Part shown: piece after piece, positions 4,865 through 46,624 of the stretch
Layout: each line of letters starts with the position of its first letter
Numbering within the stretch: the stretch's first letter is position 1
Sequence record: NC_005833.1
Length of the DNA stretch: 48,836 nucleotides
Source: Escherichia phage T1
Strand: one strand, 5' to 3'
The notes under the pieces: model-generated
Database searches by the model: none
Seen by the model: the letters and a program-made list of their open reading frames with translations, nothing else
What the model was told of the DNA's origin: nothing
Translations under genes and position numbers: made by a program

Positions 4865-4917
4865 TAGCACGAATTGCTAAAACTTGCTCAAGGGCATTTG
4901 TTAGAATGCCCTTCGTT
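4864..4917 (+). promoter_or_regulatory. conserved box-hairpin element
   Basis: ATAGCACGAATTGCTAAAAC; TTGCTA 4874-4879; 22-nt spacer; TAGAAT 4902-4907; AAGGGCAT / ATGCCCTT arms. Confidence 0.6.
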
Positions 4918-4947: not shown

Positions 4948-5478
4948 ATGGATAAAATCACAATTTGGGGCCAGACAATCAACCTGTTTCTCGGCACGCG
5001 CCGAGTGGCAATCTTTGACTTTGACGGGACACTTAGCGATGGATCTGGTCGACTTCACCTGCTGCCAACAAAGGATTTGCACTTGACTGAAAGCTGGTCT
5101 GAGTTTAACCGAGCGGCAATATTTGATAACCCAATCCAGAGCACGATCGATGTGATGAACTCTATGTTTGCCGCTGGGTATCATGTGATCATTTTAACCG
5201 GGCGAAGTGATGAGGTGCGTTACGCATCTGAGTTATGGCTTAAGCATCACGGCGCTCGATATGATTACTTAGTCATGCGACCGCATACCGACAACCGCAA
5301 AGACACGGTAATGAAAGAAGAGGCAGTGCGCGCTATCGGCATTGATAACATTCTTGCGGCTTGGGATGACTCAGTGAATATAATAAAAAAATTCAGAGAT
5401 CTAGGGATAACCACATATCAGGTTTGTGAATATGCCTGTGATAGTCGAGAGGATTTAAATAGTCATGGTGTCGATTGA
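4948..5478 (+). CDS. HAD-superfamily phosphatase (nucleotidase or polynucleotide 3'-phosphatase-like)
   Basis: HAD motif I FDFDGTL, motif II ILTGR, downstream K and WDDS; RBS GAGGAA. Confidence 0.6.
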   Translation: MDKITIWGQTINLFLGTRRVAIFDFDGTLSDGSGRLHLLPTKDLHLTESWSEFNRAAIFDNPIQSTIDVMNSMFAAGYHVIILTGRSDEVRYASELWLKHHGARYDYLVMRPHTDNRKDTVMKEEAVRAIGIDNILAAWDDSVNIIKKFRDLGITTYQVCEYACDSREDLNSHGVD

Positions 5479-5959
5479 TAACAAATCAATGGTAAGAGAG
5501 TTATTTACTTATTCTGACGGCGTTCTGTATTGGAAGGCCAAATCATCTAAATACAGTAGAGCTAAAATAGGAGGCGCGGCAGGAAGCAAGGATAAAGACG
5601 GATACATAATAATCAGAGTAAGAAACGAAACTAGAGGCGCTCACAGGCTTGTATGGATATACCATAATGGCAAGATACCTGATGGAATGGAGGTAGACCA
5701 TATGGATGGAGACATAACAAACAATAGAATAGAAAACCTAAGATTGGTAACGAGAACCATAAATAACAGGAATCAAAAAAAGAGATCTGATAACACAACC
5801 GGAGTATCCGGTGTAACTTTCATGAAAGATAGAGGAAAGTATAGGGCGCAAGTTAGAAACAAGAGACTCGGGCAGTTCGACACAATAGAAGAGGCCGCCA
5901 AAGCAGTAAAGGATGAGCGGGATAGATTAGGTTTATTCACAAAAAGACACGGGGTGTAA
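5465..5959 (+). CDS. HNH homing endonuclease with AP2-like DNA-binding domain
   Basis: YHNGKIPDGMEVDHMDGDITNNRIENL HNH core plus TGVSGV..KYRAQV AP2-like segment; AGA/ATA-rich codon usage unlike neighbours. Confidence 0.75.
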   Translation: MVSIDNKSMVRELFTYSDGVLYWKAKSSKYSRAKIGGAAGSKDKDGYIIIRVRNETRGAHRLVWIYHNGKIPDGMEVDHMDGDITNNRIENLRLVTRTINNRNQKKRSDNTTGVSGVTFMKDRGKYRAQVRNKRLGQFDTIEEAAKAVKDERDRLGLFTKRHGV

Positions 5960-5961
5960 AC

Positions 5962-6534
5962 ATGAAAACAGCTATCATTTTAAACGGCGCACCTGGTGCG
6001 GGAAAGGACACTATCGGATGCATCCTGGCTGACACTTACGATCATGTAGCGCTACGCAGCTTCAAAGCGCCAATGTTTGAGATTGCCCGAGCAATCCTGG
6101 GTGAGACTAATTTCGAGTATTTCATGTTCTTGTATGAGGACCGTCGCTATAAAGAAGAGCCAGCGTCAATCCTGAACGGTAAAAGCCCGCGCCAGTTTAT
6201 GATCTGGATTAGCGAGGAGGTCATCAAGCCGCAGTTCGGAAATCGCTTCTTCGGTATGCGAGCGGAAAGTAAGGTGAAAGAGTCGCATTCACTTTCGGTA
6301 TTTACTGACGGTGGATTCAAAGACGAGATCTTGCAGATGATTGAAGGTGACATCCAGGTCAAGCTGTGTCGAATCCATCGCAACGGTTGCAACTTTGACA
6401 ACGACAGTCGCGACTATATCTATCTTGACGATATGATCGGGGTCAACGGTTATCAGGAGTGTGACTTCTTTTCTGTCGAAGGCCATCCAGAAATTACCGC
6501 TCAGCACATAGCCGCCACGTTCATCAATAAATAG
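5962..6534 (+). CDS. P-loop nucleotide/polynucleotide kinase
   Basis: Walker A GAPGAGKDT near N-terminus (GKDT as in dNMP kinases); about 190 aa. Confidence 0.6.
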   Translation: MKTAIILNGAPGAGKDTIGCILADTYDHVALRSFKAPMFEIARAILGETNFEYFMFLYEDRRYKEEPASILNGKSPRQFMIWISEEVIKPQFGNRFFGMRAESKVKESHSLSVFTDGGFKDEILQMIEGDIQVKLCRIHRNGCNFDNDSRDYIYLDDMIGVNGYQECDFFSVEGHPEITAQHIAATFINK

Positions 6535-40821: not shown

Positions 40822-41955
40822 ATGTCACAAGCTAAAATCACTACCGAGCAACTTATCGAAGAGCGCATGAGCGGCCTGACACTTCGCGAGATCGCGGAAA
40901 AGTACGGTATGCACATTCGCACTGTCGAGGCGCGTCACGCAAAACTTGCAAAAGAAGGCCACTTCCACGGCAACGAGCATGTTGCTAAGATGGTTCCGGA
41001 AGGCTTCATGGTAAAAGGCACGTCAACCATGATTGACGCGGAAGGTAACGAGAAGATTCGTTGGGTTAAGACATCAGTTGATAATGAGCGCCTTGAGGTT
41101 CTAATGGAAAAAGCGCGTGAAGCATTCTGTTCAGAGTTGCCTAAGGCTATTCCATCTGAATCACCTGACGTTAGTTTTGATGAAGACACGCTTGCGATGT
41201 ATCCAGTTTTTGATTTGCACATTGGTGCTCTTGCTCACAAACATGAGTGCGGCGAAAACTACGACACAGCGACAGCAGAGAAGGTTATGAATGGGTTCTT
41301 TGACTACGCTGTAGATAAGGCGCCAAACTCAAAGAATGCCGTATTGGTATTGGGTGGCGATTTCCTACATTACGACTCTTTGGAGTCTAAGACTCCAGCG
41401 TCAGGCCATTACTTAGATTCTGACAGTCGTTACGCTAAGCTTGTTTATGTCGCAATCCGATCAGTACGACGCGCAGTCTCTCGAATGCTGGAGAAGCACC
41501 AAGTTATTGATATTAAAGCAATAAGTGGGAATCACGACGAATCAGGGATGGTTTGGTTGCGCGCTGCGCTTGCTGCATTTTATGAAGATGAGCCGCGCGT
41601 AAATGTTGATGTTAGCCCTGCCGCAATGATGATGACCAGCTTTGGTAAGACCCTTATTGGATACACTCACGGGCATCAAATGCGAAAAGCAGATACTCGA
41701 CTAAGTGTTATGGCAACTGATTTTCGTAAGTTGTTTGGTCAAAGTGATTACGTTTACACGCATAGCGGTCACTGGCACAGTCAAAAGATTACAGAAACAA
41801 ACTTGGGTATTGATGAGGTTCATGGTCAGCTTGGAAGTCCTGACGCATACTCTGCCAATGGCGGTTGGAGGTCTCAGCGTCAAGCTGCTGTGATTGTCTA
41901 TCACAAGGAATTTGGTGAGGTTGGACGATTCATTTGTCGACCTGAAATGTTCTAA
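40822..41955 (+). CDS. HTH domain fused to calcineurin-like metallophosphoesterase
   Basis: N-terminal HTH-like LTLREIAEKYGMHIRTV; C-terminal GGDFLHYD and ISGNHDE metallophosphatase motifs. Confidence 0.6.
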   Translation: MSQAKITTEQLIEERMSGLTLREIAEKYGMHIRTVEARHAKLAKEGHFHGNEHVAKMVPEGFMVKGTSTMIDAEGNEKIRWVKTSVDNERLEVLMEKAREAFCSELPKAIPSESPDVSFDEDTLAMYPVFDLHIGALAHKHECGENYDTATAEKVMNGFFDYAVDKAPNSKNAVLVLGGDFLHYDSLESKTPASGHYLDSDSRYAKLVYVAIRSVRRAVSRMLEKHQVIDIKAISGNHDESGMVWLRAALAAFYEDEPRVNVDVSPAAMMMTSFGKTLIGYTHGHQMRKADTRLSVMATDFRKLFGQSDYVYTHSGHWHSQKITETNLGIDEVHGQLGSPDAYSANGGWRSQRQAAVIVYHKEFGEVGRFICRPEMF

Positions 41956-42027: not shown

Positions 42028-42510
42028 ATGAACTGGCACGAGCATTACGAATATAGGGATGGTGTTCTATATCACAAGGTAAAGCCATGCAGAAGGCATG
42101 ATGTAAATATTGGGGATGTTGCTGGAAGGGTTGCCAAAAACGGCTATCACTATGTTGTTCACAAGAACAGGCCGTATAAGAGATCTCGAGTTATATGGGA
42201 GATGTTTAATGGTGAGATACCAGATGGTTTTGTTATAGATCATCTGAATCACAATGCCACCGATGATAGGATCGATAACCTTGAGTGTAAGCCAAGAAGA
42301 GAGAATATGGTTAATGTTAAGTTAAGGATTGATAGCACGACCGGAGTAACTGGCGTATCAAGAAAGAGGGATAACAAGTGGAGGGCGTACATAACAATTA
42401 TGGGTAAGCAGAAGTGCAAGAGCTTTGACACGTTTGAGGAAGCTTGCGCGCAGAGGATTGAATGGTCAGTAACTCATGATTTTCACCCAAATCACGGTGG
42501 AACATACTAA
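42028..42510 (+). CDS. HNH homing endonuclease with AP2-like domain
   Basis: GEIPDGFVIDHLNHNATDDRIDNL HNH core, TGVTGVS..KWRAYI AP2-like segment; AGA/AGG/ATA-rich codons. Confidence 0.75.
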   Translation: MNWHEHYEYRDGVLYHKVKPCRRHDVNIGDVAGRVAKNGYHYVVHKNRPYKRSRVIWEMFNGEIPDGFVIDHLNHNATDDRIDNLECKPRRENMVNVKLRIDSTTGVTGVSRKRDNKWRAYITIMGKQKCKSFDTFEEACAQRIEWSVTHDFHPNHGGTY

Positions 42511-44516: not shown

Positions 44517-46085
44517 TTAACCCATCAGTCGAGGATTGATGAAAACAATATCATCAATCCGGCAAGTGTAGTTCATCTCTTCGAGCGTGATCAGCAGGCT
44601 GTCGATTCGCTCAGCTACTTTTTGTTGACCGTTGAACGGCGTAACGTTACGGCACTTTGCAACAATGCTATGAATAGGTGCGCGACCTTTGTTCTTCTTT
44701 GCGATCTCAGTGATAACATCAATCAGCTTACGAGATTCAGCCTCATCACCAGCATACCCGGCGGCGCTGGCAGACGACAGATAGGTTCTGGAAAGCTCAT
44801 TGAAAATCATGATCGCTTCCTGCATTGTTTCAAGGTCAATCTCACGGTTGGAACGGTTCGGTGATTCACCCTCCCAGTTCTTGATTGTGTGAAGAACTGA
44901 AGCAATGCGCAAAGCGTGCTTATCGAACTTGCCGAGATGACCGCGTAGCATTGAGTGAGAGTATTTGCCCCCGGCTGCGAAATCCGGCTCCATAGCCTGG
45001 CGAGCAAGGTTTAATTCACGCATAGCATTACGGCTTACAGAGAGAACAACGTTGTCCTCCTTCATAATGTTGTGCACAAGTCGATAATATTTACTCACCA
45101 ATCCTCGATCGACTTCCTTATACAGTGCATCACCATTTTCATCGCAAAGAATACGAGTGCCTAAAAGAGGTTCCTCGCGAACCAATAGGAAACGCTCAGA
45201 TACACCGATACCGCGCTGGCCTGCGTCCATGATACCCTTGATTGTTTCATCCTGCGCAATGACGCAGATCGAACCGACCGGGCAAAGAGATAAGTTATTG
45301 TCCTGATTTGAACGCGCAACCTCCATATGGTTTTTATCCCACGCCTTGAGGATAAGCTCGCTGTTTGATTTCTTATCAGAACCGCCATAAGTCAGGCCAA
45401 GCAATGTATTTATTGCCGTTGCCTCATCAGAGATTACGGAAAAGTGGCCTTGAACAGCAGCTACTTTCGCAAGACCTTCCGGTGTAGGATCTGATACCGC
45501 GAAAACAATATCAGCCATCTTCTTGATCTTCTCTTCCAGTTTTTCCTTGTCCTCGTACAGCGCCGCCGTCGTGTTACCCTTCGGATCGTTTTTGATTTCC
45601 TTCTCGATCTGACGTAGCTGACTGGTTAAACGGATACGTTCCTTTTTGCGCTCTTCATTCAGTCTCTGAATCTCTGCGCGCATAGGTGTAATCGCCGCTG
45701 AGTTAATCGCGGATTTACCTGTTGATGGTGGCTGGCTAATCACCATATAAAGAGCGGTCGGTTGTTCTTCTCCGTGATATTGCACCCAAAACTTCCCTAG
45801 CATCGCGGCTGAGATGCACCCAATGAAATGAGCGTACGCAGACGAAACAGGAAACTGTACAGACTCAGCTTTTGCTTTTGCATATTCGAATACCAGGTTA
45901 TCGCCACCTAACGAAATCAGCGGGAACTTATCGTTTCCACTGTTGATATCGATCGGGTCTTGCCAAAACGAAACTGAATCCCCGTAGCTGTTTTCACGAA
46001 TTGCGATCGCCACCGGATTAACTCCAGTGCTATTTGCGATCTCAATAATCTGTTGGTAATTCAGTTTTGGCTTAATATTAAACAT
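44517..46085 (-). CDS. P-loop NTPase (possible replication-associated ATPase)
   Basis: Track ORF 44517..46148; start refined to Met 46085 (ATG sharing one base with HNH stop); Walker A-like QPPSTGKS. Confidence 0.55.
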   Translation of the reverse strand: MFNIKPKLNYQQIIEIANSTGVNPVAIAIRENSYGDSVSFWQDPIDINSGNDKFPLISLGGDNLVFEYAKAKAESVQFPVSSAYAHFIGCISAAMLGKFWVQYHGEEQPTALYMVISQPPSTGKSAINSAAITPMRAEIQRLNEERKKERIRLTSQLRQIEKEIKNDPKGNTTAALYEDKEKLEEKIKKMADIVFAVSDPTPEGLAKVAAVQGHFSVISDEATAINTLLGLTYGGSDKKSNSELILKAWDKNHMEVARSNQDNNLSLCPVGSICVIAQDETIKGIMDAGQRGIGVSERFLLVREEPLLGTRILCDENGDALYKEVDRGLVSKYYRLVHNIMKEDNVVLSVSRNAMRELNLARQAMEPDFAAGGKYSHSMLRGHLGKFDKHALRIASVLHTIKNWEGESPNRSNREIDLETMQEAIMIFNELSRTYLSSASAAGYAGDEAESRKLIDVITEIAKKNKGRAPIHSIVAKCRNVTPFNGQQKVAERIDSLLITLEEMNYTCRIDDIVFINPRLMG

Positions 46086-46624
46086 CACAATAAACTCCTT
46101 AGTTGACGGCGTGAATGATACACCGTCAATGGTACACGCGTTTTGCAAAAAGTGCTATTCGATCCGTGATTCTCATGAAAACCGTATAGCCTTTCCGCTT
46201 CCTTCCTTGCTTTAGCCGCTGCATCCAGCGTCATGAAGGTCCCTAAGTGTTTTGTCTTTTTATTTATGGTTATGTTTGCCGTGTATCTATTTGTTTTTTT
46301 ATTCCAATACACTCCCATAACTCCTGTGTTTGATGACACTACTCCCTTGTTTCTTAGGTTGTCTTGCCTAGTTACTAGCCTGAGATTCTCAATTCTGTTA
46401 TCGTCTCTTTCATGGTTTATGTGGTCTACATCCATTCCTTCTGGTATGTTTCCGTAGTGTATTTTCCATACTATTCGATGGGCGTATTCAAATACACCTC
46501 CTGGAAAACATATTGACCGATAACCTTTTTTATTAACAGTTCCGGCAAGTAGATTTCGTCTTCTTCCGATTCTCCACTCTTTCCAGTACAGTCTCCCGCT
46601 AACGTATTTCAGTTCATCTTTCAT
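46085..46624 (-). CDS. HNH homing endonuclease with AP2-like domain
   Basis: GNIPEGMDVDHINHERDDNRIENL core; AGA/ATA-rich codons; last 25 codons read through a box-hairpin element. Confidence 0.75.
   Translation of the reverse strand: MKDELKYVSGRLYWKEWRIGRRRNLLAGTVNKKGYRSICFPGGVFEYAHRIVWKIHYGNIPEGMDVDHINHERDDNRIENLRLVTRQDNLRNKGVVSSNTGVMGVYWNKKTNRYTANITINKKTKHLGTFMTLDAAAKARKEAERLYGFHENHGSNSTFCKTRVPLTVYHSRRQLRSLL
46100..46160 (-). promoter_or_regulatory. conserved box-hairpin element, reverse strand, inside 3' end of HNH ORF
   Basis: Reverse complement reads ATAGCACTTTTTGCAAAA, 22 nt, TATCAT, then RBS and ATG of P-loop NTPase gene. Confidence 0.55.

Follow-up and report, generated by a model that had tools for sequence, protein, structure and literature searches.

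Escherichia phage T1 carries, at positions 4948–6534 of the window (the whole 48,836-nt stretch analyzed, sequence record NC_005833.1, in whose positions T1 coordinates are given here), a HAD-superfamily phosphatase gene and a P-loop kinase gene with a free-standing HNH endonuclease gene between them. The locus raises a question of function: is this a two-gene polynucleotide kinase/phosphatase that heals nucleic-acid ends, or does it combine a deoxynucleoside monophosphate (dNMP) kinase with a nucleotidase? An earlier, sequence-only reading of this DNA had proposed both and held that sequence alone does not decide between them. Our analysis favors, with a probability of about 0.63, a conserved phage nucleotide-metabolism pair that would act in deoxynucleotide salvage and is split in T1 by the HNH gene, and not a Pnkp-like end-healing system. 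The locus comprises the following features.

4948..5478, + strand: HAD-superfamily phosphatase of the PNKP/Dmp clade, 176 aa (DxDGT motif, Pfam HAD_PNKP)
5350..5478, + strand: divergent 3' end of the HAD gene, which appears to travel with the HNH gene (co-conversion-like tract, marked by an identity break)
5465..5959, + strand: free-standing HNH (HNH_3, possibly AP2) homing-type endonuclease, probable mobile insertion, 164 aa (Pfam, phrog_99, PADLOC)
5962..6534, + strand: predicted gp1/Dnk-family deoxynucleoside monophosphate kinase (DNK) from the T1-like subfamily, 190 aa (phrog_139, fold)

The three open reading frames (ORFs) lie on the + strand where the sequence-only reading had placed them, and both motifs it had pointed out are present: DxDGT as F-D24-F-D26-G-T28 in the HAD ORF, and Walker-A as G9-A-P-G-A-G-K15-D16-T17 in the kinase ORF. 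The overlap that it had seen between the HNH start and the phosphatase stop amounts to 14 nt, the HNH ATG lying 14 nt ahead of the HAD stop codon, and the kinase ATG follows 2 nt past the HNH stop. Over its 2.2 kb, the interval matches Tunavirus T1 (MN153797) at 99.9% identity. That record has the same three coding sequences and names the HAD ORF '3'-phosphatase, 5'-polynucleotide kinase', the HNH ORF 'homing endonuclease', and the last ORF 'putative kinase'.

Family and active site of the kinase

In a PHROGs scan, the T1 kinase fell into phrog_139, 'deoxynucleoside monophosphate kinase' (1.1e-46), which also takes T4 gp1 (1.8e-65) and R1DNK, the kinase of phage Rao1 (5.7e-44), with all three spanning profile positions ~82–260. 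T4 Pnkp was assigned to phrog_505, to which the T1 kinase gave no match; the T4 gp1 and T4 Pnkp sequences had been verified against the PDB before the scan. BLASTP aligned the T1 kinase with R1DNK over the full length at 43% identity (3e-47), and its closest fold match is 1DEK, with a P-loop core and a helical nucleoside monophosphate-binding domain. Purified R1DNK phosphorylates dAMP, dGMP, dCMP, and dTMP in vitro, and its K15A mutant is inactive (bioRxiv 10.1101/2024.12.20.629578). The T1 kinase family is large, comprising 5017 clusters at 50% identity.

Active-site residues follow the same pattern. The P-loop G-x4-G-K-D-T is present, with G14, K15, and D16 invariant among 38 and among 128–130 family members. 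Substrate-site residues listed for gp1 (PMC10653934) were mapped onto a 131-sequence alignment, in which the majority of the dNMP-site residues are conserved in 130 family members: R68, R132, M135, and W152 of gp1 correspond to R61, R77, M80, and F97 of T1, and D175, E181, R197, and D204 to D116, E122, R140, and D148, all conserved in the T1 family. R61 of R1DNK, whose R61Q substitution is one escape mutation (bioRxiv 10.1101/2024.12.20.629578), likewise aligns with gp1 Arg68. Within the gp1 phosphate-binding set K37/R68/R132/R177, R68 and R132 are kept (R61 and R77), K37 has no aligned T1 equivalent, with a nearly invariant K35 sitting two residues upstream, and R177 is replaced by an invariant glycine (Gly118).

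With the phage DNKs R1DNK, T5 Dnk, and T4 gp1 (PDB 1DEK/1DEL), the T1 kinase shares the GKD(T) P-loop, phrog_139, and the closest fold, and with gp1 in particular the conserved equivalents of R68, R132, M135, D175, E181, R197, and D204. It differs from gp1 in being ~50 residues shorter and in having, besides the Arg177-to-Gly exchange, an invariant Glu (E85) in place of Thr140; from the phage DNKs in the invariant D-S-R of the T1-type lid motif; and from gp1 and T5 Dnk in that direct sequence similarity is marginal (2–16 bits).

Likeness to the kinase of T4 Pnkp (T4 Pnk) is confined to the P-loop. When the kinase family was compared with single T4 sequences in hhalign, gp1 reached 80% probability over 74 columns, a weak match, and Pnk aligned at the P-loop only (27 columns; 1.5 bits), with no sequence or profile similarity past it. 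The Pnk-type Asp-x-x-Arg after strand 2, which we take to be catalytic D35 and R38 in T4 Pnk, is absent; the T1 segment reads S33-F34-K35-A-P, without an acidic residue, and F34 and K35 are nearly invariant in T1-type kinases. A Pfam scan of the kinase ORF gave nothing above threshold, a PDB sequence search with the single sequence and with a 38-sequence profile matched only the P-loop, and NCBIfam and PADLOC returned nothing useful for either the HAD protein or the kinase. Because the hhalign match was weak, PHROG, fold, and literature evidence was relied on instead; it argues strongly that the T1 protein is a gp1/Dnk-type dNMP kinase and not a T4 Pnk-type 5'-OH kinase. For the kinase, then, the evidence decides what the sequence alone had not, in favor of the dNMP kinase alternative and against the polynucleotide kinase.

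The family has a second connection, to phage defense. R1DNK is the trigger of Kongming, which is also set off by the kinases of Klebsiella phage VAC2 and of Bas06 KarlJaspers (bioRxiv 10.1101/2024.12.20.629578). The T1 kinase is 46% identical to the VAC2 kinase and scores 161 bits against that of Bas06 KarlJaspers. The VAC2 record is classed as Drexlerviridae, and Bas06 belongs to that family too. Lying within this Kongming-triggering family, the T1 kinase would give T1 a known immune trigger.

As for its metabolic role, the T1 kinase would convert dNMPs to deoxynucleoside diphosphates, which host NDK would then convert to triphosphates for phage DNA synthesis. Host DNA, known to be degraded by T1, may serve as the dNMP source.

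The HAD phosphatase and its likely substrates

On the phosphatase side, the PNKP-type character implied by the end-healing proposal is borne out by homology. The profile search that the sequence-only reading had suggested for both proteins, which placed the kinase in phrog_139, placed the HAD protein in phrog_415 and matched its ORF to Pfam HAD_PNKP (PF25109; 6.9e-17, over the gathering score); the fold agrees. All residues essential to the T4 phosphatase domain find a counterpart in the T1 HAD; the catalytic/essential set, which takes in the DxDxT nucleophile motif, motifs II–IV, and the counterparts of Arg176 and Arg213, is D24, D26, T28, R35, T84, R86, R111, D119, K123, D140, and D141. The roles assigned to these residues follow, in part, a description of the phosphatase domain (PMC3592404). 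A homology search with the HAD sequence returned only close T1-like relatives. Together, the profile match and the residues indicate genuine kinship between the T1 HAD, which keeps all catalytic residues, and the phosphatase domain of T4 Pnkp.

The T1 HAD has in common with the T4 Pnkp (pseT) phosphatase domain and with Capnocytophaga Pnkp1 the DxDxT acylphosphatase fold, the catalytic and essential residues, and the Pfam HAD_PNKP match. It departs from T4 Pnkp in being a stand-alone protein, in that the kinase accompanying its type, or fused behind it, is gp1-type and not Pnk-type, in ~10 extra residues (LLPT..ESWxEFN) behind motif I, in the lack of conservation of Arg279, and in coming from a genome without a ligase. 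A Cys/His-rich, zinc-ribbon-like C-terminal tail (C-x-H ... C-x2-C) was observed in the HAD of phage LeonhardEuler (L002:2549-3160, 203 aa; L numbers denote contigs), and a tail of the same type in that of Erwinia phage S2 (L087:3384-3995); the T1 and SH6 HADs have none.

The names in circulation do not follow this homology. Both 'polynucleotide kinase' (phrog_415) and '3'-phosphatase, 5'-polynucleotide kinase' (GenBank, T1 4948-5478 and homologues) sit on proteins without a kinase domain. The assignment given here would correct this widely propagated error, in which a kinase name is attached to a HAD in a PHROG that also holds the T5 5'-deoxynucleotidase Dmp.

The T1 HAD would be a Mg-dependent aspartyl-phosphatase of a clade in which the T4 Pnkp 3'-phosphatase domain stands alongside Dmp, and the second of these relatives suggests a different role: that of a T5 Dmp-like 5'-deoxynucleotidase, which would lower dAMP and thereby offset the triggering of Kongming by the DNK via dITP synthesis. 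T5 Dmp, VPG01 Dmp, and the T1 HAD all belong to phrog_415, and they share a DxDGT-x4-HR motif and an insertion after motif I that is absent from T4 Pnkp. Dmp homologues reportedly occur together with DNKs, and in a Vequintavirus an NT5C-type deoxynucleotidase gene overlaps the kinase gene. However, direct similarity of the T1 HAD is 2 bits to T5 Dmp versus 25 bits to the T4 Pnkp phosphatase, with Dmp comparisons overall reaching 2–18 bits and a Dmp profile scoring the T1 HAD at 5.9 bits; Dmp is not matched by Pfam HAD_PNKP, and motif III of the T1 HAD has the Pnkp pattern (RKDxVxKEE) and not that of Dmp. Rao1 encodes the full set of gp56 metallophosphoesterase, gp57 T1-type HAD (scoring 193 bits against that of T1), and gp58 DNK, yet it is reported to be Kongming-sensitive, with dAMP rising in infection and rescue by T5 Dmp in trans. 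Since its T1-type HAD gives no protection, this type is apparently not an effective dAMP-depleting Dmp. We consider the antidote role unlikely, and a T5 Dmp equivalent was set aside as the main explanation because Rao1 is not protected and direct similarity is weak.

Under the salvage reading, the T1 HAD would act on nucleotide-level or DNA-breakdown substrates of the same pathway as the kinase. Its most likely role would be to strip 3'-phosphates from 3'-dNMPs, 3',5'-bisphosphates, or 3'-phosphate-ended fragments, yielding products that feed the kinase. We infer that 3'-phosphate removal on nucleotides or DNA fragments is to be favored as its mechanism, with a Dmp-like 5'-nucleotidase as the main rival.

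Gene pairing across phages, end healing, and a third enzyme

The position of the two genes was compared in a sample of 80 T1-like viral contigs. HAD lies upstream of the kinase on the same strand in 71 loci; 29 loci show an overlap of the two genes, typically of 4 nt, 14 have a gap of at most 150 nt, and 25 have 0.6–2 kb of other genes in between. Elsewhere, the pair overlaps in Kagunavirus ST20 and Aeromonas phage LAh4 and abuts in Erwinia phage S2 (Autographiviridae). Rare fused proteins with HAD at the N-terminus and kinase at the C-terminus form three clusters on 44–60 kb contigs, where the neighbors RdgC, NinH, PAPS reductase, and Dam are uninformative and a metallophosphoesterase adjoins. 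Each gene also occurs alone, then amid nucleotide-metabolism genes. In phiEcoM-GJ1 the kinase adjoins a dUTPase; in a Krischvirus it is the HAD gene that overlaps nrdB; in Vequintavirus WalterGehring (L084:3992-5193) the kinase 3' end is overlapped by an NT5C-family HAD (5'(3')-deoxyribonucleotidase; Pfam 5e-6) near thyA and nrdA, which appears to be a second, independent kinase–phosphatase pairing.

Could this adjacency be meaningless, the two being unrelated accessory genes that are chance neighbors in a variable early region of T1-like phages? Each gene stands alone in several lineages, the 25 loci with intervening genes fit such a view, and deletion of dnk in Rao1 carries no fitness cost (bioRxiv 10.1101/2024.12.20.629578). 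Adjacent pairs in at least four lineages of differing genome architecture, and true HAD–kinase gene fusions, argue against it, and of the explanations weighed here we hold chance adjacency to be the least probable. Gene order instead points to an ancestral pairing of HAD and kinase, frequently with overlap, in T1-like phages and in at least three other lineages, and conserved adjacency, overlaps, and fusions indicate that the two are functionally linked. The ancestral order would place the kinase directly behind HAD, the two genes usually sharing 4 nt.

Another reading is a split polynucleotide kinase-phosphatase, in which the HAD would remove 3'-phosphates and the P-loop protein would phosphorylate 5'-OH ends of broken RNA or DNA, countering nucleic-acid-cleaving defenses as T4 Pnkp does. 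The HAD is closest to Pnkp phosphatase domains by sequence and fold with its essential residues all kept, some phages fuse it to the kinase, and a DNA ligase gene is adjacent in S2 and GJ1. The metallophosphoesterase partner found in many loci is reminiscent of bacterial Pnkp. Against these points stand the kinase, which is like T4 Pnk only in the P-loop, has S33-F34-K35 where Pnk has Asp-x-x-Arg, and has proven dNMP kinases as homologues, and the gene content of T1: no ligase was found among 20 ORFs of at least 100 aa scanned outside the structural block, none is annotated in the T1 record, and no tRNA genes were found. Krischvirus GEC-3S, moreover, has a stand-alone T1-type HAD overlapping the nrdB end (L094:2841-4474) on top of a complete pseT and rnlA. 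A healing-and-sealing system would pair a Pnk-type kinase with a ligase; here the partner kinase is gp1-type, and the scanned and annotated T1 ORFs include no ligase. The two-gene end-healing proposal of the sequence-only reading is not borne out by these results, and we judge a split Pnkp highly improbable. RNA repair was likewise rejected for T1, which has no ligase, no tRNA genes, and a kinase of a different family.

Several points nonetheless weigh against deoxynucleotide salvage. The dNMP kinase step has been shown in homologues 43–46% identical to the T1 kinase and is carried over from them, and the exchange of gp1 Arg177 for an invariant Gly means that substrate contacts differ in detail. 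The 3'-phosphate substrates of the HAD are ones that we infer, and we know of no 3'-phosphate-leaving nuclease in T1. A T1-type profile scores T4 Pnkp at 42–45 bits versus 9.5–18 bits for Dmp, and this score, the kept equivalents of Arg176/Arg213, and the Cys-rich tail of some HAD alleles would all fit a polynucleotide substrate. In two phages that are unrelated to each other, the kinase gene directly adjoins one for an ATP-dependent DNA ligase: Erwinia phage S2 (L087:3384-5530, order HAD–kinase–ligase) and phiEcoM-GJ1 (L088:3244-4618, order ligase–kinase–dUTPase).

An ordinary nucleotide-salvage pair is largely known and the finding modest, since published genome papers already call these genes nucleotide-metabolism enzymes. 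A third gene, which in many relatives forms a cassette with the pair, is encoded elsewhere in T1.

40822..41955, + strand: metallophosphoesterase ('DNA repair exonuclease'), 377 aa (phrog_704)

The product matches phrog_704, 'DNA repair exonuclease', at 7e-155, with a weak Pfam Metallophos match (2.4e-3), and combines an HTH-like N-terminal segment with the metallophosphoesterase motifs DxH, GD, GNHD, GH, and GHxH. Its gene is unlinked from the HAD–kinase pair in T1, and the protein is 45% identical to one encoded directly upstream of HAD–kinase in ST20. In 29 of the 80 T1-like loci, the flank retrieved upstream of HAD contained the metallophosphoesterase gene, ~40 nt from HAD in those inspected; the gene also occurs in ST20, Erwinia phage S2, VAC2, and Rao1 (gp56), and beside the fused gene in L096. 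Metallophosphoesterases of other families occupy the same position in LAh4 and Proteus phage 309.

The enzymes responsible for host-DNA recycling in T1-like phages have never been assigned (PMC11447400), and the 377-aa protein is a candidate for the host-DNA degradation enzyme of T1. We put forward, tentatively, that the metallophosphoesterase, the T1-type HAD, and the DNK make up an unrecognized three-enzyme cassette for host-DNA breakdown and salvage in T1-like phages, in which the HAD would remove 3'-phosphates from deoxynucleotides or DNA ends, or would tune the provocation of dITP-based immunity by the DNK. If so, a three-enzyme cassette, sometimes fused, would recur in several phage lineages, and the HAD 3'-phosphatase would represent a new stand-alone activity, different from those of Pnkp and Dmp. 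What the HAD and the metallophosphoesterase do matters for the recycling of host DNA by T1-like phages.

The HNH endonuclease gene

The sequence-only reading had described an HNH-AP2 endonuclease gene separating phosphatase and kinase. The HNH part stands (HNH_3 at 2.1e-22 in Pfam, phrog_99 at 8e-61, PADLOC 'HEase' at 3e-11); the AP2 match is weak (3.4e-4, 21.3 bits versus the 33.3-bit Pfam cut-off) and, being below cut-off, lets an AP2 domain be suggested at most. The position between the two genes is likewise as described, but a simple separator it is probably not: the distribution and flanks of the gene indicate a mobile gene, recently inserted into a HAD–kinase pair that is otherwise contiguous. 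The whole interval is covered in only 6 of 117 related phage records, and among the 80 T1-like contigs HNH lies between HAD and kinase in L006 and L008 only, in addition to a remnant in L039. Identity between T1 and the HNH-less phages SH6 and LeonhardEuler drops from >90% to about 50–60% from HAD nt ~400 (window ~5350) and recovers 2 nt ahead of the kinase ATG; JMPW2, in which HNH is present, matches T1 throughout and is essentially identical to it across the divergent HAD 3' stretch. In the L039 contig (5780-6567), the short HNH remnant between HAD and kinase is accompanied by a kinase frame split into three pieces.

In HNH-less relatives, a 108-bp spacer encodes a 36-aa hydrophobic ORF. This conserved ORF (MNLYEFIAAHPVLTVIILLIINHTIINVAKLFLGRY) was observed between HAD and kinase at L003:3077-3190 (SH6) and L002:3157-3267 (LeonhardEuler). 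T1 appears to have lost it through the HNH insertion: in T1 and a few close relatives, the incoming gene would have replaced the spacer and brought the divergent HAD 3' end along.

Two further HNH_3 genes lie elsewhere in the window.

42028..42510, + strand: HNH_3 endonuclease paralogue, 39% identical to the HNH protein of 5465-5959
46085..46624, − strand: HNH_3 endonuclease paralogue, 42% identical to the HNH protein of 5465-5959

With them, T1 encodes three paralogous homing-type endonucleases; the paralogue at 46085-46624 has an AP2 match that is also under the cut-off (2e-6, 28.4 bits). The HNH_3 domain, the intergenic position, the two T1 paralogues, the sporadic presence among near-identical genomes, and the divergent flanking tract are all shared with free-standing phage HNH homing endonucleases. 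In the copy at 5465-5959, by contrast, the AP2-like module stays under the Pfam threshold, and the roles of the protein in cleavage and homing are putative.

A promoter and terminator scan called no terminator at the junctions of the three genes, nor did it yield a convincing promoter. Within the 84-nt gap 5' of the HAD gene, an 8-bp inverted repeat (AAGGGCAT ... ATGCCCTT) lies at 4890-4913 on the + strand, with no T-run behind it, and overlaps a TTGCTA/TAGAAT promoter-like pair that was uncalled in the scan and read by eye.

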